A DNA stretch of 64,000 bases, taken from positions 4,800,001 through 4,864,000 of the forward strand of contig OY759599.1 in NCBI GenBank assembly GCA_963662465.1, read 5' to 3'. Shown here one piece after another: positions 27,608 through 36,996 of the stretch. Made by a program: the position numbers and the translations under genes. Positions within the stretch are counted from its first letter, which is position 1, and each line of letters starts with the position of its first letter. The notes under the pieces were generated by a model. That model ran no database searches. It had not been told where the DNA came from and was given only the letters and a program-made list of their open reading frames with translations. This DNA is from Desulfatiglandales bacterium. GTDB lineage: Bacteria > Desulfobacterota > DSM-4660 > Desulfatiglandales > Desulfatiglandaceae.

Positions 27608-28954
27608 TCACTGGAGGGTTTCGTCCAGGCGTTTGGAAAGAAAGTCCACCTGATGTTTCATACTGCGGTCCGTTTTCATTTTTTTCTCAACCAGTTCAGT
27701 AGCATACACAACCGTGGAATGGCTGCGCTTGATGGTTTTGCCGATAGCCTCCAGGGTTTCATCCGAATGCCTGCGGCAAAGATAGGCATAGATGTTTCGG
27801 GGATAAGAATACGCTTTTTTTCGAGATTTGGAACTGAGCATCTCGGTGTCCACCTTATAATACTCACACACCAGCGCTCTTATTTTTTCAGTGGTAATGG
27901 AAGTCTCTCCAGATACCAGGGCGCTAACCACCTCTTTGGCCAGATCCATGTCGATTTTCGCTCCCACCAGCTCAGACCTTGCCTTGAGACACTTCAATGC
28001 GCTTTCCATTTGTCGAACATCAGGTTTCAGCCGATCCGCCAGGAAATGAACCACTTCTTTTGAAAGTGAAACGTCGTACGCTGAGGCTTTTTCGGTAAGG
28101 ATTTGCACTCGGGTATGATAGTCGGGTCCTCCAATGGTGGTCACCAGGCCGGACGTCAGACGGGAGGAAAGCTCCTTTGACATCTGGGGGATGTCTTTTG
28201 GCGGAAGAGAGCTGGTAAAAATAATTTTCTTGCGGTCTTGCGCCAGCGCATCCAAGGTGTAACCCAGTTCCGCCTGAATCTTTTCCTTTCCTCCCAGGAA
28301 ATGGATCTCCTCCAGAAGGAGAACATCACATGAACGACGGTACCGAGTTTTAAAGGCGTCTATGCGATGGGTCCGCAATGACGCAATCATTTCATTGGTG
28401 AAGTCCTCAGCGGTCATGTAGAACAGGCGGGTTTGCGGACTCGCCTTCAGAATCGCATGGCCGATGGCCTGGGAAAGGTGGGTCTTTCCCAGGCCGGTAT
28501 TGGACAGCATCAGGAGGGAATGGTAGTTACACGGGTTTCCCATCGCAATATCTTTAGAGGCCGAATAGGCAAATTCATTGGATTGTCCCACGATGAAACG
28601 ATCAAAGGTAAACTGACTGTTCAGCAAAAATGTGGAACGTTTTTTTTCAGGCATACCCGGAAGGGTCAGCTGGTCCGGGTCGGGAGGCAGAGAAACAGGG
28701 GCCGGCATCCTTTCTTGACGCTGTACCTTGAACTGAATATCCGTGGGACCGTCGGCCATGGCATTAAACTTTTCTTCAATCAGATCCAAATAATTTTCGA
28801 CGACCCAATCTTTGGAAAATCGATTCGGGCAACCCAGGACCACAGCGCCCTTCTTGGCCTGCAAACATTCAATCGGCTTTATCCAAAGAGAAAACGTGTT
28901 TTCCGGAACCCGCGTTTTAAGCTGGTTCTTGATTTCACCCCAAGCGGTTTTCAT
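27608..28954 (-). CDS. dnaA: DnaA-family protein, divergent paralog
   Basis: Domains I-IV; FTFDRFIVG.SN, TGLGKTHL, RL.SGL, HSTV; variant Walker B LLLEE; no adjacent dnaN. Confidence 0.88.
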   Translation of the reverse strand: MKTAWGEIKNQLKTRVPENTFSLWIKPIECLQAKKGAVVLGCPNRFSKDWVVENYLDLIEEKFNAMADGPTDIQFKVQRQERMPAPVSLPPDPDQLTLPGMPEKKRSTFLLNSQFTFDRFIVGQSNEFAYSASKDIAMGNPCNYHSLLMLSNTGLGKTHLSQAIGHAILKASPQTRLFYMTAEDFTNEMIASLRTHRIDAFKTRYRRSCDVLLLEEIHFLGGKEKIQAELGYTLDALAQDRKKIIFTSSLPPKDIPQMSKELSSRLTSGLVTTIGGPDYHTRVQILTEKASAYDVSLSKEVVHFLADRLKPDVRQMESALKCLKARSELVGAKIDMDLAKEVVSALVSGETSITTEKIRALVCEYYKVDTEMLSSKSRKKAYSYPRNIYAYLCRRHSDETLEAIGKTIKRSHSTVVYATELVEKKMKTDRSMKHQVDFLSKRLDETLQ

Positions 28955-29412: not shown

Positions 29413-30702
29413 TTACCGAACCGGCTGGTTGAAATAACCCAGCTCCAAATCCGGAAAAGCGTTATCAACACGAGCGGCCATTTGCCTCATTCCGATACCT
29501 CCAGCGCCTGTGTCAGGCATTTTGTTCAGGTAAAAGGCCGGGTCAATGCAAAGGTTTTTTAAATGAAGGAAGTTTACGCCGGTTTTGGCAATTAACGCCA
29601 TTAAGGCATCCATCTCCGCTTCCTGGTCCGAAATTCCGGGGAAGACCAAATAGTTCAACATGGTATACAAACCCAGTTCCCGGGACAGGGCCACGGAAGA
29701 AATCACATCATCAAACCCATAGGTTTTGGGTCGATAGTAGGCATGATAAAAATCGGGCCGTGCACTATTCAAACTGATGCGGATGGAATCCAGCCCGCTT
29801 TGTGCGATCAACCGAATCCGTTCAGGAAAACTACCGTTGGTATTCAGGTTAATGGTGCCGTTTTGGGTCTGCCTTCGAATTTCGGCAGTGCTTTCAGCGA
29901 TCAACCGATATTCCGTAAGGGGTTCGCCCTCGCAACCCTGGCCAAAACTCACAATGGCGTCGGGGGCATGGTTCAGGTGCGCCACCGCCAGGGTTACAAT
30001 TTCGTCTTTGGACGGGGTAAATCCGATCCGTTCATGAGACGCTTCAAAGGAAGATCCCGGCTGAAGGGAAAGACACCCCAGACAGGCCGCATTGCACTTC
30101 CGGCTAACCGGCAATGGGGCTTCCCATCTTTCCAGAAAGAGATTTTTGGCGGCAAAACAATGGTTTTCGGTGGCGCAATGGGTTAAATGTTCCACAAGGG
30201 GACCTGCCGGGTACTTCTTCATGTAGTCCGCAATGGCGGGGACCAGTTCCCGGTCGTCATAATTGCGGGGATCCCACCGCTCGTTATACTCCACCTCAAA
30301 CCCCGTGGCCCAGTAATGGTCATCGTCGTACCCCACAGCCCCATAGGCCCATGACGGCAGTACAAATGATTTTCCGCTGTAATCCGCCGCGGGGAGATGG
30401 GTCCTGACAAATCCCGGTTCAAGAAAAGCGGCGACGGCAAAACAGGCTGTCGGCTCGCCGTCCACTTCCATTTCATAAACGGTTTCCACTTGGCCCGTAT
30501 CGGGATCAAGGCCCAAGGGAGGGCAGGAGGGGAGATAAAAGAGCTTGCTGAACTCCGGCATGACAATCAGGTCTTCCGGTTCAATGGCAAAGAGAGTTGA
30601 TCCGGAAAAACCCGCCATCCTGAGGTATGGATGGTCATAAATCCGGCCTTTACCGTCCGCGTAAAGCATAAACGGCAGGTGTCTTAAATCATGGTCTGTC
30701 AT
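29413..30702 (-). CDS. Radical SAM protein, unknown function
   Basis: CNAACLGC, SFGQGCEGEP, NLNTNG; start moved to ATG 30702 after AAGGA. Confidence 0.88.
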   Translation of the reverse strand: MTDHDLRHLPFMLYADGKGRIYDHPYLRMAGFSGSTLFAIEPEDLIVMPEFSKLFYLPSCPPLGLDPDTGQVETVYEMEVDGEPTACFAVAAFLEPGFVRTHLPAADYSGKSFVLPSWAYGAVGYDDDHYWATGFEVEYNERWDPRNYDDRELVPAIADYMKKYPAGPLVEHLTHCATENHCFAAKNLFLERWEAPLPVSRKCNAACLGCLSLQPGSSFEASHERIGFTPSKDEIVTLAVAHLNHAPDAIVSFGQGCEGEPLTEYRLIAESTAEIRRQTQNGTINLNTNGSFPERIRLIAQSGLDSIRISLNSARPDFYHAYYRPKTYGFDDVISSVALSRELGLYTMLNYLVFPGISDQEAEMDALMALIAKTGVNFLHLKNLCIDPAFYLNKMPDTGAGGIGMRQMAARVDNAFPDLELGYFNQPVR

Positions 30703-30828: not shown

Positions 30829-32274
30829 ATGTCGCCCTCAAACAAAAGCACGCCAACAAAAGAAAAACAATTCAGGCTCGTAAAGTTTTTTGCCTATGCG
30901 AGTTTTATCGTTCTCATTATCTTCAGCCTCCCCTATTCAATGGTCATCTCCCAAAGGGCCAAGGATATCCTGATGAAAAACCATGAAACTTATGCTCTGT
31001 TGCTGGGCCAAAACCTGAATCACCAGGTATTTCAAAATTTTGTATTGCCTGTCACCCGCCAGTTCGGGAAAATGCGGCTGAGGGAGCAGCAACAGCAGGC
31101 GCTGATGGACCGAATCGTGCGAAATACCACGCACAGCTTCAAAATAGATCTGGTCAACATGTATGACATTAACCAGGGCGTTATCGCCTACAGCACGGAT
31201 CCCCTCCTCATTGGAAAAAAAGTGCGAGAGAGCCTCGGGTACAAGAAAGCGGTGATGGGGCAAAATTCTTCCAGGCTGGTATCCGGAGGAGAGAGTATCC
31301 TGGGAACCGGCATTCAACGAATGGGGGGAGAGAAAAAACTCAGGACTTACATCCCCTTCATGGGGGCAGGGCCTTTCCTGGGGGATACCGGGCATGTGTT
31401 GGGGGTTTTTGAACTGATACAGGACCTCACCGAGGAATATGCATCACTGGTTCGATTTCAATATCTCATCTTTGGGCTGTCAATTCTGATTATGGGCATG
31501 ATTTTTGTGGCGCTTCTCTTCATTGTGCATAAAGCGGAAAAAACTATTTCTGAGAGAGCCAAAGAACAAAGAGAACTGGAAGCCCAACTGAATCAGGCGG
31601 AAAAGCTGGCGACCCTCGGCCAAATGATCGCCGGCGTATCCCATGAAATCAGGAACCCTCTGGGAATCATTCGAAGCACTGCCGAATTGCTGGGCAGCAT
31701 GTCGGGGGCCAACGAAACCCAGGCCAAGCTGTCGGGTCTGATTGTCGAAGAATCCAGTCGGCTCAATAATATTGTTACGGAGTTTCTCGACTTTGCCAGG
31801 CCCCAAGCGCCCCATTTTCAAGACTGTGATTTGAACGAAATTTTAACTAAAAATATGCAGTTTTTGCAACCGGAGCTTGAGATGAAAAAAATTTCCCTGC
31901 AAGACGACTTAACCCATCGCCCCCTGCCCCTCAGAGCGGATCCCCAACTGCTCTACCGGTCTTTTTTAAACATTTTCATGAACGCCATTCAAGCCATTGA
32001 GGGCGCCGGGACGCTTTCGGTCAGCGTATTGGAAGAAAAAGACCATTACCGGGCGACCATTGAAGACGATGGGAACGGCATTTGCGAAAAAGATCTGAAA
32101 AAGATCTTCGACCCTTTTTTCAGCACCAAGGACAAAGGAAGCGGCCTGGGGCTTGCCATTGTCCGCAATATCATGGAAGGCCATCACGGCCGCATATGGA
32201 TTGAGAGCCGGCATAAAGAATCCTCTGCCGAAAAAACGGGGACCAAGGTCTTTATCCGACTGCCAAAAGAATAA
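30829..32274 (+). CDS. Membrane sensor histidine kinase
   Basis: Two TMs around a periplasmic domain, HEIRNPL H-box, NAIQA, DDGNG, FFSTK, GSGLGL. Confidence 0.95.
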   Translation: MSPSNKSTPTKEKQFRLVKFFAYASFIVLIIFSLPYSMVISQRAKDILMKNHETYALLLGQNLNHQVFQNFVLPVTRQFGKMRLREQQQQALMDRIVRNTTHSFKIDLVNMYDINQGVIAYSTDPLLIGKKVRESLGYKKAVMGQNSSRLVSGGESILGTGIQRMGGEKKLRTYIPFMGAGPFLGDTGHVLGVFELIQDLTEEYASLVRFQYLIFGLSILIMGMIFVALLFIVHKAEKTISERAKEQRELEAQLNQAEKLATLGQMIAGVSHEIRNPLGIIRSTAELLGSMSGANETQAKLSGLIVEESSRLNNIVTEFLDFARPQAPHFQDCDLNEILTKNMQFLQPELEMKKISLQDDLTHRPLPLRADPQLLYRSFLNIFMNAIQAIEGAGTLSVSVLEEKDHYRATIEDDGNGICEKDLKKIFDPFFSTKDKGSGLGLAIVRNIMEGHHGRIWIESRHKESSAEKTGTKVFIRLPKE

Positions 32275-32290
32275 AACGGAGCCCAATATC

Positions 32291-33655
32291 ATGGAAACCA
32301 TCCTGATTGTTGATGATGAAAAAAACTATCTCGTGGTACTGGAGGCCCTTCTAGGCGCTGAAGGATATGAAATCGTAACGGCCAGGGATGCTAAAATGGC
32401 CATCAGCATCATTCGTGAAGCGGATCTCGATCTGGTTGTCACCGACATGAAAATGCCCGGGATGAGCGGCATGGAACTTCTGGAAAGATGCAAAAAAATT
32501 AAGCCTGAAATACCCGTCATCATGATGACTGCCTTTGGCACCATTGAAATGGCGGTTGAGGCCATGAAAAAACAGGCCTATGACTACATTCAGAAACCCT
32601 TTGAAAATGAACAGCTTAAACTGACGGTGAAAAAAGCGCTGGAAAATCACCGGTTGGTCAAGGAGAACAAGCGACTGACGGAGGCCCTTGCCGATCGATT
32701 CAGATACGGCAATATGGTGGGCAAGAGCAAACCGATGATCAAAGTATATGATCTCATCGACAAGGTTTCCAGTTCCAAAGCATCGGTCCTCATTACCGGG
32801 CCATCGGGCGCCGGAAAGGAACTCATTGCCAAAGCCATTCATTACCAGGGTTCCAGAAAAGAACAGCCGCTCATTGCCATCAATTGCGGCGCCTTGACGG
32901 AAACCCTTCTGGCCAGTGAATTGTTCGGACATGAAAAGGGCGCGTTTACCGGCGCCATCGCCTTAAAAAAAGGGCGGTTTGAATTGGCGGATGGCGGCAC
33001 AATCTTTCTGGACGAGGTGGGCGAGATGCCGCCCTCGCTTCAGGTAAAGCTTCTGCGGGTCCTTCAGGAAATGGAGCTGGAACGGGTGGGGGGAACGCGA
33101 ACCATCAAGGTAGATGTGCGCGTGCTTTCAGCCTCAAATCGGAATATCAAGGAGGATGTGGCCAAAGGGATATTTCGTGAAGACCTCTACTATCGCTTGA
33201 ATGTTATCCACATCGATACGCCGTCCCTTCAGGAGCGTACGGACGATATTCCCCTCCTGGTAAAGCATTTTATCGAAAAATTTCAAGAAGGCGAGACCCT
33301 CAAAACAATCGAGTTGCGACCCGAAGTGTGGAAAGCACTCTATTCACACCCCTGGCCGGGGAATGTCAGGGAGCTGGAAAACGTCATTGAAAGAGCCCTG
33401 GTATTGCATTCGGGCGGCGTCATTACCCTGGATGATCTGCCGAAGACACTCATAGAAACGGAAACCGATTTCGATGTGGAGCGATTTGTCCCCCCCCACA
33501 TCCCCCTGCAAAAAGCCATGGAAGAAATCGAAGAACGGCTGGTACGGAGAGCCCTGGCCCAGTCCAACAATGTTCAGTCCCATGCGGCCAAGAGTCTGGG
33601 GATTACCAAAAGCCTGATTCAACACAAAATGAAGAAGTACAATATCACCCTGTAG
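32291..33655 (+). CDS. NtrC-family sigma54-dependent response regulator
   Basis: REC (ILIVDDE, TDMKMP), [26 protein letters not shown], Fis-type HTH; true start METIL at 32291. Confidence 0.96.
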
Positions 33656-33656
33656 G

Positions 33657-33751
33657 GGTAAAAGGTCTTGTACCAAAGATATCATACATTATTTCATATA
33701 TTTACGTTAAAACAACTGTTTTTGACCGTTTTCAGGTACAAAATCTTGTAC
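33657..33751. promoter_or_regulatory. Two candidate enhancer (UAS) palindromes
   Basis: GTAAAA-GGTC-TTGTAC (33658-33673) and perfect GTACAA-AATC-TTGTAC (33736-33751). Confidence 0.6.
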
Positions 33752-33848
33752 TATCTCAGGAGTTCATAAAAAACCGGAAATGAGGGTTGGCACAAGTTAA
33801 ACTCTTAAAAAACAATGGGTTATAAAAAAAGTTGCCCCCCATATTTTT

Positions 33849-33865
33849 TTGGCAAGCTTATTGCA
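33849..33865 (+). promoter_or_regulatory. sigma54 (-24/-12) promoter
   Basis: TTGGCAAGCTTATTGCA = GG-N10-GC; IHF-like AAACAATGGGTTA at 33810-33822. Confidence 0.78.
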
Positions 33866-33875
33866 GTAAAGAAAA

Positions 33876-33946
33876 GCCATATAGAGTTAAAAAAATTACT
33901 CTTTCCTCCTAAGAAACCAACCTCGCTTTGCGGGGTTGGTTTTTTT
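33876..33946 (+). ncRNA. Candidate sigma54-dependent small RNA (~70 nt) with anti-SD seed
   Basis: Lies between the sigma54 promoter and an intrinsic terminator; no credible ORF; contains CTCTTTCCTCCT. Confidence 0.6.
33917..33946 (+). terminator. Rho-independent terminator, possibly bidirectional
   Basis: CCAACCTCGC-TTT-GCGGGGTTGG followed by T7. Confidence 0.85.
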
Positions 33947-33976
33947 ATGCCTTCTGAAATCTGCAATGACTTCACT

Positions 33977-34046: not shown

Positions 34047-34931
34047 TTAATACCCCAACCGTTTCAATGCCCGTGTATCCTTGCTCCAGTTTTTCTCTAG
34101 GCGGACCGCCAAATCAAGATAAACTTTTGCACCAAGCAGCGATTCCAACTCAAGCCTGGCGGAACGGCCGATGGCCTTGATCATCTTTCCCCCTCGGCCA
34201 ATGAAGATGCCCTTTTGGGAATCACTTTCAACATGGATCCCGGCTGCAATGGATACCAGTTTTTTTTCAGGCACATCCTCAATTTTTTCAACGGTTACCG
34301 CACATGAATAAGGCAGTTCCTGCCGGAGGTAATGATAAATTTTCTCCCGAATGATCTCGGAAACCATGAAAGCCTCGGATTGATCGGTGTTCATGTCCGG
34401 CGGGAAAAACTGCGGTCCTGGCTTTAACCGCAATTCCAGTTCATGAAGCAATTCATCCACACCATCGCCCTTGAGCGCTGAAATGGGAATCATAACGTCA
34501 AAAGGAAATCGTGCCCCGTAGTCCGCCAGCATGGGGAGAATCCTTTTTTTTTCAACCTTATCGATTTTATTGATGGCCAGCAATCGTGGTTTTGCCATGA
34601 CCTTCAGACTTTCCATAATGGACGGAATGGCGGGATCTTTACGGGCGCCGGCCTCAACCATCATCAGGATGATATCCACTTCATGAAAAGCGGCAAAAGC
34701 GGCTTTGACCATGCTTTTGTGCAGCGCCGTCCGCGTCCTGTGTATCCCCGGGGTATCCATAAACACCATCTGGCAGTCATCCTGGTGAAAAACGCCCAGG
34801 ATACGATTCCTCGTGGTTTGCGGCTTAGGGGATACAATGGCTAATTTCGTTCCCACAATGCGGTTTAACAATGTAGACTTTCCCACGTTCGGTGGGCCAA
34901 TAATGCCGATAAAACCGGATTTAAAACTCAT
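34047..34931 (-). CDS. era: GTPase Era
   Basis: GPPNVGKST, PQTTR, DTPG, NKID, KH domain. Confidence 0.97.
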   Translation of the reverse strand: MSFKSGFIGIIGPPNVGKSTLLNRIVGTKLAIVSPKPQTTRNRILGVFHQDDCQMVFMDTPGIHRTRTALHKSMVKAAFAAFHEVDIILMMVEAGARKDPAIPSIMESLKVMAKPRLLAINKIDKVEKKRILPMLADYGARFPFDVMIPISALKGDGVDELLHELELRLKPGPQFFPPDMNTDQSEAFMVSEIIREKIYHYLRQELPYSCAVTVEKIEDVPEKKLVSIAAGIHVESDSQKGIFIGRGGKMIKAIGRSARLELESLLGAKVYLDLAVRLEKNWSKDTRALKRLGY

Positions 34932-35947
34932 AATCTCTCAAACCGAATCCTTCCCACGGGAACCGTGTCGTCCGGAAAAACACCCATAACACGGGCTCCT
35001 GTTTTATGTTCAATGCTTTTAATCCCCCTATTTTTATAGCCCCTTACAAGGGGAACCTCCCGTTTCGGCGCATAGAGTCTTATCCGTGCGGCCTCTCCGG
35101 GGGTTGGCAGATCAGGGACAATGTTTTGGTAATGGATGGCCGAACGCACCAGGAATCCAAATGCGGGATGCCAGGGACCTGACAGAATGCGACCTTTTTC
35201 AAGGAGCGACGGCGAACTCATGAGACCAACCCTGATAACCGGAATCCCATTTTTTTCGAACAAGACAACACCTTCCACGCACGCATTGACGGCCTCCCCA
35301 AGAGAAAAAGGCTGGTATGCCCCTGCCTCATACATACGGGCAAGTCCGGTCCCCTTTAAGACCAGCGCCGGATACAGCCGGGCCATGTGAGGAGATAACG
35401 CCAGGACTTTTTTCAGGGTAGCCGAAAATATCTCCCTTGAATCACCGGGGAGTCCCGGCATGAGCTGGACACCCACCTTGAAGCCGTGATCTTTCAGCAT
35501 TTGAACCGCTGTAACGGTGTCCCCGGCCGTATGTCCCCTCCGAGAAAGAGACAGGACACGGTCATCCATGGACTGGACCCCCAACTCCACAGTGGCAACG
35601 CCGTATGCCTTCAAAAGGCGCAGACGCTCCTCATCCAGAGAATCGGGTCGGGTGGAGATCCGTATGGACCGAATGGCGCCGGAACGGATATAAGGCGCCG
35701 AGGCCTTCAGAAGGGATTCCATGCGGGCTTTATCAAACCCGGTAAATGTGCCGCCATAAAAGGCCAACTCGGCATTTCGGTTCGGGTCAAACCCATTGGA
35801 TTGAATGGCCGCATCCAGCGTTTCACGCACCTGTTGAGGACCGATCGAATAAGCCGGTTGATCGGTAATCTTTTCCTGGTCGCAGAAAAGGCATCGGTGC
35901 GGACATCCGGCGTGGGAAATAAAAATGGGAATAATCAGGAATTTCAA
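34928..35947 (-). CDS. Elp3-like radical SAM protein
   Basis: CPHRCLFCDQ, AFYGGTFT, ISTRPD, ELGVQS, GPWHPAF; between rnc and era. Confidence 0.88.
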   Translation of the reverse strand: MKFLIIPIFISHAGCPHRCLFCDQEKITDQPAYSIGPQQVRETLDAAIQSNGFDPNRNAELAFYGGTFTGFDKARMESLLKASAPYIRSGAIRSIRISTRPDSLDEERLRLLKAYGVATVELGVQSMDDRVLSLSRRGHTAGDTVTAVQMLKDHGFKVGVQLMPGLPGDSREIFSATLKKVLALSPHMARLYPALVLKGTGLARMYEAGAYQPFSLGEAVNACVEGVVLFEKNGIPVIRVGLMSSPSLLEKGRILSGPWHPAFGFLVRSAIHYQNIVPDLPTPGEAARIRLYAPKREVPLVRGYKNRGIKSIEHKTGARVMGVFPDDTVPVGRIRFERL

Positions 35948-36654
35948 TCTTCTTTCAGGCGAAAATATGCCTCCCTTGCCGCATGCTGTTCGGCCTCTTT
36001 TTTGCTTTTGCCTTCCCCCTCAGCCAGGACGATGCCATTAACAGCCAAGGCGATGCGAAATACCTTGTCGTGTGCCGGCCCCGTCTCTTCCATGAGCCGG
36101 TATTTTGGAAGGCTTTTGAATGCCTGCTGGGTAAATTCCTGCAGCAAACTTTTAAAATCCTGAACCAGATCGTCTGTTCGCACCTTCTTTAGAAGAGGTT
36201 CAAACAATTTTTCGATAATCTTTTTGACCGCATCAAATCCACCATCCAGATAAATGGCCCCGATAAGGGCTTCCGTAACGTCCGCGAGGATTGAAGGTTT
36301 TTGTCTGCCGCCGCTTTGTTCTTCGCCTTTGCCCAAAAGCAGATAACGTCCCAGGTCAAGCCTTGTGGCAACATCATAAAGCCCCGCTTCGTCCACCACC
36401 ATGGCCCTGAACTTGGATAAATCCCCCTCGTTCGCGGTTTTATAATGTTCCATGAGCAAATGACTGATGGCCAGATCCAGGACCGCATCCCCCAGGAACT
36501 CAAGGCGCTCGTTGTCCTCAAGGTCGGCCTCTAACTGCTCATTGACATAGGAGGAATGTCGAAATGCCTGAAGCGCCAATTCAGAATCCCTGAAACGATA
36601 CCCCAGTTCTTTGTGAAGATTCTCAAATCCGCAGTCTTGAAATGGATCTGCCAT
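35944..36654 (-). CDS. rnc: Ribonuclease III
   Basis: NERLEFLGDAVL signature, C-terminal dsRBD; start uncertain (ORF opens at 36696). Confidence 0.97.
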   Translation of the reverse strand: MADPFQDCGFENLHKELGYRFRDSELALQAFRHSSYVNEQLEADLEDNERLEFLGDAVLDLAISHLLMEHYKTANEGDLSKFRAMVVDEAGLYDVATRLDLGRYLLLGKGEEQSGGRQKPSILADVTEALIGAIYLDGGFDAVKKIIEKLFEPLLKKVRTDDLVQDFKSLLQEFTQQAFKSLPKYRLMEETGPAHDKVFRIALAVNGIVLAEGEGKSKKEAEQHAAREAYFRLKED

Positions 36655-36996
36655 AATATTCCTGATGTCTAAAATATGCATCCTTTCGGGTTTCATATAA
36701 GCCCAAGCCCTTTTCTAAGTCAAGAAAATCCCTCAAAATGAGAATTCGTAAAGGGCAGCCGGTAGAGGCAGGAGTGGAATGGCGCCCAGCCAGCGGCGGA
36801 TCTTTTTTTTCGTGCCGCCTTCAAAACAGCGTTCAGATGAACTTATCAAAAATGTTTTCGGCTTACGCCATCGGGAAAACATGTGAGCGAAAGAGCCATA
36901 GGTAGATTGGAACCTATGCCTTCTCTATCACGCAAATACTATCCCTGCTGACTTCTTTTGGCAAATTCATTACCAAAAACTTGAACATCGAGTACA

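Follow-up and report, generated by a model that had tools for sequence, protein, structure and literature searches.

A sigma54-linked candidate small RNA of a Desulfatiglandales bacterium is complementary to a porin translation start and probably represses it

In the genome of a Desulfatiglandales bacterium (assembly GCA_963662465.1), the genes for a sensor histidine kinase and a sigma54-dependent response regulator are followed by a short element that, in our judgement, very probably is a genuine small RNA (sRNA) gene. We analysed it within a stretch of 64,000 nt (contig OY759599.1, positions 4,800,001 to 4,864,000 of the forward strand; hereafter the window), for which an earlier reading of the letters alone, here called the original prediction, had proposed a two-component system driving an unannotated sigma54-dependent sRNA. 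Our interpretation, to which we assign a probability of about 0.75, is that the RNA is a sigma54-driven, Hfq-independent repressor of porin translation, which would act in the manner of MicA, RybB and VrrA while belonging to a separate family. The start region of a porin gene is probably a main target, repression being the likely outcome. The features of the locus are listed in Table 1.

Table 1. Features of the kinase-regulator-sRNA locus (positions in the window)
Feature	Position	Strand	Remark
Sensor histidine kinase, membrane-anchored, HisKA and HATPase_c	30829..32274	+	AtoS/ZraS-like, under those cut-offs
Sigma54-dependent response regulator	32291..33655	+	Receiver, AAA+ with GAFTGA, Fis-type helix-turn-helix (HTH)
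Upstream activator site 1, imperfect palindrome	33658..33673		2 nt past the regulator stop codon; same position in orthologues
Upstream activator site 2, perfect palindrome	33736..33751		78 bp after site 1
IHF-like bending site	33810..33822	+	Between the activator sites and the promoter
Sigma54 -24/-12 promoter, TTGGCAAGCTTATTGCA	33849..33865	+	GG at 33851-2, GC at 33863-4
Predicted small RNA, ~70 nt (~50-70 nt in relatives)	33876..33946	+	5' end inferred
Pairing region with anti-Shine-Dalgarno core CUCUUUCCUCCU	33895..33916	+	22-nt complement to the porin start region
Intrinsic terminator hairpin and U-tract	33911..33946	+	Fold and covariation
era GTPase, convergent neighbour	34047..34931	-	Context, outside the proposed system

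A wobble-tolerant search of the host genome with the CU-rich pairing region of the RNA (the seed) gave 16 sites before an ATG. The site at G000:C1:4927299-4927320, outside the window, pairs with positions 33895-33916 over 22 uninterrupted base pairs (20 Watson-Crick and 2 G-U), and this duplex spans the Shine-Dalgarno (SD) sequence, the spacer and the start codon of a gene for a 424-residue porin. When the 22-nt pattern was searched with G-U pairs allowed, the RNA gene and the porin start were the only sites without a mismatch; no site had one mismatch, two had two and thirteen had three. The target protein scored 32.3 bits against PF13609 (Porin_4; cut-off 27) and belongs to porin clusters in the Atlas. 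Its structural model, obtained from a 16-sequence fold (predicted local distance difference test, pLDDT, of 65; a single-sequence fold gave 30.6), is a beta-barrel with structural matches to DcaP, OmpT, Omp32 and PorB. The three host paralogues of this porin carry short SD matches only. A further observation is that one porin paralogue (L226, G000:C1:6619331-6619690), located ~3.5 kb from another, is apparently frameshifted near its start. Searches of other design did not reach a conserved target: one other site was found with the exact 12-mer complement and five with a stricter pattern, and the wobble-tolerant hits of the L182 and L290 type were followed to their open reading frames (ORFs) only. 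Among 41 related genomes, porin homologues were found by protein search in 21, and the complementary site was present in 17 of 26 homologue start regions, with seven of the nine lacking it being second copies.

In G116 the regulator is 52% identical to that of the host. The RNA of this genome pairs perfectly over 27 positions with a Porin_4 gene, although the sequence differs from that of the host, and the 27-nt pattern had only two sites within 3 mismatches genome-wide, namely the RNA and the porin (control, 0). Apart from this and the 22-nt host search, pairs were counted by hand. Nineteen of 20 positions pair in G048, where the porin gene is the divergent neighbour of the kinase gene in the kinase-regulator-sRNA locus (L393, G048:C505); G030 has 17 pairs, a U-A having changed to A-U, and G034 and G022 have 19 each, and the porins of G018 and G015, retrieved by Pfam, have the canonical site. 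In G421 the RNA pairs over 14+8 nt, an A-U having changed to C-G, with the gene of a secreted protein that has no BLAST similarity to the host porin beyond the signal peptide; a like protein in G425, which resembles homotrimeric-porin and alginate-export barrels, pairs over 18 nt. A pattern search in the f6 genomes and G048 returned 53 sites and was too loose for ranking. At the level of sequence, the complementarity and its co-variation are plain; pairing and repression in the cell are what they point to.

The RNA itself is simple. Sigma54 geometry places its start at 33875-6. The segment 33876-33947 folds with -25.8 kcal/mol (z -4.99), nearly all of it from the hairpin at 33911-33945, which is flanked on both sides by A- and U-runs and was not among the calls of a simple terminator scan. 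In 22 sequences picked for diversity, which as relatives are not independent, 10 of the 13 hairpin pairs had changed on both sides and 93.5% of cells were paired, a level equalled by none of 500 shuffles and far above that of slid controls. The sequence CUCUUUCCUCCU just 5' of the hairpin is nearly invariant, and the seed, which lies outside the hairpin, is the most conserved part of the RNA; the 5' part varies in length and sequence, and the hairpin diverges too. In the host genus a weak 5-bp hairpin (33883-33902) masks the seed in its 5' half, with CCUCCU remaining accessible, and might serve to gate specificity. The strong hairpin probably ends the convergent era transcript as well. Two coding alternatives were discarded: the predicted transcript has no ATG, and on the minus strand the seed reads as an SD sequence, but the nearest ATG is 23 nt off and no start is conserved. 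No family in Rfam 15 matched at its gathering score (16 matches, all far below; the best, PyrR, had 26.9 bits against a gathering score of 54). The original prediction of about 70 nt without a credible ORF, of a strong terminator and of an unannotated RNA is supported. Five public sequencing runs contain part of the stretch, one of them RNA-labelled with a 0.05 share of words. Four of the five were aligned, all in contig form; the RNA-labelled one matches in diverged pieces, with no cover at 33822-33972, and so speaks neither for nor against a transcript. A public DNA run, which may be the source sample, spans the region without differences.

Upstream of the RNA, the predicted GG-N10-GC promoter at 33851-33864 was confirmed and is conserved behind orthologous regulators, with activator sites some 100-200 bp upstream of it. 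Two palindromes GTACAA-N4-TTGTAC had been announced in front of it; the one at 33736 (GTACAA-AATC-TTGTAC) is indeed perfect and is the sole perfect copy in the 8.16-Mb genome, whereas the one at 33658 (GTAAAA-GGTC-TTGTAC) departs from the consensus by one mismatch. Among the 26 genome sites with at most one mismatch, these two are the only ones with a TGGCA-N7-TGC box within the scanned distance of 20-350 nt, and the regulator presumably binds both. Across orthologous loci the two sites lie 77-79 bp apart, and a perfect palindrome occurs in 19 of 30. In one locus (L025:1320-1489) the perfect activator palindrome occurs three times, not twice, with a spacing of exactly 77 bp. The IHF-like element at 33810 is present as predicted, but such a motif by itself is at chance level (the window has 15 matches, where 14.3 were expected); it recurs upstream of the promoter in 22 of the 30 orthologous loci, in 21 at a near-constant distance.

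The original prediction of a histidine kinase paired with an NtrC-type regulator was correct, and the locus has the features by which bacterial enhancer-binding proteins are recognised, namely a receiver, a GAFTGA-containing AAA+ domain, a DNA-binding domain and a cognate kinase; the host genome carries rpoN. At E<=1e-150, the regulator had one match in 35 of the 41 related genomes, and kinase homologues (E<=1e-95) were found in 74 of 301 genomes of the phylum, with a single match each apart from two in G033. The cassette of promoter, CU-rich stretch and hairpin follows 32 of the 35 orthologous regulators. Judged by eye, it is present in 28 of the 30 loci returned, this one included (27 by a strict pattern); of the two exceptions, one ends with its contig inside the seed and the other offers 134 nt only, without an activator site. 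In the remaining five genomes, four have the cassette and G026 a decayed one. Conservation of the -24/-12 box, of the 77-78 bp palindrome spacing and of a seed outside the terminator behind orthologous regulators supports the original prediction. Named records that share this cassette, or have a regulator close to this one, were labelled Desulfatiglandales, Ca. Desulfacyla and Desulfobacteraceae.

Further afield, a promoter-plus-seed pattern matched 15 of the 301 phylum genomes (reversed control, 0), and since the kinase occurs in 74, this strict pattern spans only part of the range. Among 19 stretches with more distant pairs, to which an RNA model was applied, five show, on the strand where it was expected, a hairpin preceded by a CU-rich stretch, and all five have a -24/-12 box; of the others, four have no cassette after the regulator, six missed the regulator end, and L367, L371, L373 and L374 were covered by the RNA-model scan only. 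Of 45 genomes positive for the kinase, seven matched a palindrome-plus-promoter pattern (control, 0), and in six of these the match leads into a CU-rich stretch and hairpin. Of 80 titled matches, 22 came from unrelated taxa; the three that were aligned (L049, L069 and L095) lack a matching terminator and were regarded as chance matches. Just 5' of the sigma54 promoter of the RNA, G079 has a copy of the seed complement (L365:372-416).

In Syntrophobacteria the promoter-seed-terminator unit occurs by itself, at a distance from all regulator and era genes, and is therefore more than a terminator, contrary to the alternative that the original prediction had itself named, a hairpin serving only the regulator and era. 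The orthologous kinase of these bacteria is 45% identical to that of the host. The match between their regulator and that of the host stops at about residue 390-415; the C-terminal domain of theirs is winged-helix-like, with weak Pfam hits only and no Fis HTH. In 20 aligned RNA copies the upstream consensus consists of tandem 11-bp repeats, ATGGCG.GATT, in place of the palindromes, and in G184 four such repeats, promoter, seed and hairpin come immediately after a winged-helix regulator. G116 in turn combines an altered recognition helix with a different palindrome pair. That the DNA-binding domain and the upstream sites change together is indirect evidence that the RNA is the output of the regulator, and it presents a natural swap of the DNA-binding domain of an enhancer-binding protein along with its enhancer. 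The winged-helix-like sigma54 regulators (L169:1498-2964, L170:1489-2892 and L385:361-1827), which apparently read the 11-bp direct repeats, are of interest in themselves; in the two that were scanned, the domain matched no Pfam family above its cut-off. Syntrophobacteraceae (L330, L346, L352, L355-L358) also have two sibling RNA types, which differ in the 5' part and stem and have in common the seed and a conserved terminator-loop CCCC.

A pattern search for targets matched 32 of 61 Syntrophobacteria genomes, many of the matches being the RNA genes themselves. Those followed led to an 86-residue lipoprotein, to HU, to porin-like proteins and to three unrelated starts. The lipoprotein, Lpp/OprI-like with a basic tail (L227/L228:1243-1503; L314:1515-1775; L317:1243-1503), has, in several genera, a seed match of 13-14 nt at its ribosome-binding site (RBS); it had weak, sub-threshold Alanine_zipper scores, six more copies were found by N-terminal sequence, and one query retrieved none from the host genome. 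MicL acts on lpp, and the lipoprotein match is a possible parallel to that pair. The HU matches are the background given by strong SD sequences.

Taken together, gene order and family knowledge suggest that the kinase would phosphorylate the adjacent NtrC-type activator. From the conserved anatomy of the region, the activator would then occupy the two palindromes, the DNA would be bent at the IHF-like site and sigma54 polymerase would make the ~70-nt RNA. This RNA, by its predicted form a single-stranded CU-rich seed on a terminator hairpin and little else, would pair in trans over ~17-27 nt with the SD sequence, spacer and start codon of the porin mRNA and block ribosome loading; the duplex might then be cleaved, for example by RNase III, which we offer as speculation. 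With a duplex this long and nearly perfect, Hfq would be dispensable. A search for Hfq (PF17209) found it in none of 12 genomes, whereas a control search found it in five of 14 named genomes; rpoN was present in all 12. The sibling copies of Syntrophobacteria also match another porin family and the small Lpp/OprI-like lipoprotein. As a tentative guess, the signal may be envelope or periplasmic stress.

Several observations weigh against porin repression as the function of the RNA. With up to 3 mismatches allowed, the reversed control of the host search gave 22 hits against 17 for the pattern itself; the 22-nt and 27-nt windows were chosen after the match was seen, and the duplex partly uses an A-run that belongs also to the terminator. 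In family f6 one porin start is partly matched and one not at all (in the porin-start comparison, five of the eleven windows missed the regulator end or had an unclear porin start). HU genes also match the seed, an anti-SD sequence partly fitting any strongly translated gene. No cassette follows the regulators of G071, G159, G256 and G191 (G256 has an unlinked one), and in G191 a palindrome and promoter lead to an SD sequence and an ATG. In G026 the porin site is kept even though the cassette has decayed. Finally, the relatives are non-independent samples.

Some of these points would fit other explanations. The CCUCCU core fits any strong SD sequence, sibling RNA copies exist, and the seed finds matches of 13-14 nt at genes for HU and small lipoproteins in Syntrophobacteria and further matches at varied genes in the host family, as would be expected of a broad anti-SD damper of many strongly translated mRNAs, with the porin as one of several targets. 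We consider this unlikely, because the extended match picks one porin gene in the host genome and in G116, and because the seed changes with the porin start region and not with the SD consensus. As to the direction of regulation, the RNA could instead activate or stabilise the porin mRNA, or the promoter could mainly yield a low-level tuning RNA; the divergent porin gene beside the G048 kinase would agree with any co-regulation. The duplex over SD, spacer and AUG in the best cases is, however, the standard geometry of translational repression, which makes activation or tuning very unlikely.

It is harder still to credit that the complementarity to the porin is incidental and that the RNA is a decoy for a protein binding CU-rich or 16S-tail-like RNA, such as Era. 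Era is encoded by the convergent neighbour here and in many relatives, its KH domain binds the 16S 3' end, with which the seed has CCUCC in common, and GlmY and CrcZ act via proteins; but the GAUCA portion of the Era site is missing from the seed, several orthologous loci have other sequence 3' of the RNA, orphan copies have no era neighbour, and 27 co-varying pairs with the G116 porin start region are not what a decoy predicts. Equally implausible is that there is no functional RNA and that the hairpin is a terminator shared by the regulator and era, the other motifs being kept for reasons at the DNA level. The A- and U-runs on both sides would let the hairpin end both convergent transcripts, no RNA reads were found (in one RNA run with a 0.05 share), and one orthologue lost the promoter; against this, promoter, seed and hairpin move together to unlinked sites, and the most conserved part lies beyond the hairpin and co-varies with a distant gene. 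We therefore retain repression of porin translation by the RNA as the preferred reading.

Convergent era had been predicted correctly, and in several orthologous loci sequence other than era lies 3' of the RNA. At this locus era belongs to a run of genes (34047-36696, minus strand) that also includes rnc and an Elp3/YhcC-like radical SAM gene and stops at the RNA terminator; the RNase III gene thus lies next to an RNA for which long duplexes are predicted. On the other side, an unassigned radical SAM gene (29413-30702, minus strand) is divergent from the kinase gene at a distance of ~130 bp. A dnaA gene (27608-28954, minus strand), above the TIGR00362 cut-off and possibly a second copy, is flanked by a glycosyltransferase-like gene and a radical SAM gene, not by dnaN.

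On a wider scale, we see even odds that the locus belongs to a lineage-wide, Hfq-free envelope module of Desulfobacterota, in which a conserved kinase/sigma54-activator pair would silence abundant outer-membrane proteins (OMPs) by way of a minimal anti-SD RNA. The targets of such a module would be two unrelated porin families and the Lpp/OprI-like lipoprotein, and the RNA would be its main output in many lineages; the job of the RNA would have stayed the same when a winged helix took the place of the Fis-type HTH and 11-bp direct repeats that of the palindromes. If real, the module would be equivalent in function to the sigmaE-MicA/RybB/MicL arm while using other components. As the sRNA family has a regulator that can be named and a specific target that co-evolves with it, Hfq-independent porin control becomes directly testable, and the family suggests convergent evolution of sRNA control of OMPs under sigma54, not sigmaE.

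Among known systems, the Vibrio LuxO-Qrr circuit is similar in that a sigma54 activator drives base-pairing sRNAs, with sibling copies in some lineages. Qrr RNAs are Hfq-dependent and target quorum regulators, and the Qrr model RF00378 scored 13.4 bits here against a gathering score of 50. CrcZ and GlmY, which the original prediction had also named as analogues, act by titrating proteins and fit less well; with a porin RBS as the target, the closest functional analogues are the OMP-repressing sRNAs. Like MicA, RybB and VrrA, the RNA has a conserved seed complementary to an OMP translation-initiation region. Those RNAs are controlled by sigmaE and mostly use Hfq and short seeds, whereas the conserved promoter here is of the -24/-12 type with a two-component activator, pairing extends over ~17-27 nt and Hfq was not found in 12 genomes.

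MicA and RybB (PMC1804206) and VrrA (PMC2628432) are reported to be short RNAs that repress porin or OMP mRNA via its 5' region. Among the titles listed in our literature search, in which subscription journals are largely uncovered, there was no porin-targeting sRNA from this phylum, and few characterised sRNAs from sulfate reducers and syntrophs. In Myxococcus, Pxr with nla19/PxrR shares with our locus an sRNA gene 3' of a sigma54 response regulator, a sigma54 promoter and a lineage without Hfq; it differs in being a processed RNA of 108 nt with three stem-loops and a role in development (PMC5568312), compared with ~50-70 nt, one stable hairpin and an unpaired anti-SD seed here, and its targets are described as unknown in PMC11928866.

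The nearest precedents for the arrangement come from sulfate reducers themselves. DVU0679 activates Dv_sRNA2, whose function is stated as unknown (PMC3333781), four sigma54 noncoding RNAs (ncRNAs) were described in Desulfovibrio, one of them downstream of DVU0653 (PMC4641369), and two unannotated sigma54 sRNAs in D. alaskensis (PMC4045070). As at our locus, DVU0679 and DVU0653 are sigma54 response regulators with a directly downstream ncRNA as target (PMC3333781; PMC4641369). DVU0679 likewise has a 16-bp palindrome with a 4-nt centre, but it reads CGTGCG-N4-CGCACG and the protein has GAYTGS (PMC3333781), unlike GTACAA-N4-TTGTAC and GAFTGA here; DVU0653 has GAFTGA (PMC4641369). With these examples already described, the architecture is not new to sulfate reducers, and the claim of a new sRNA-output system holds for the RNA family and its target, which appear to be new. 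For the Desulfovibrio entries left unexplained as an ncRNA downstream of a sigma54 regulator, the proposed repression of porin translation provides a first functional hypothesis.

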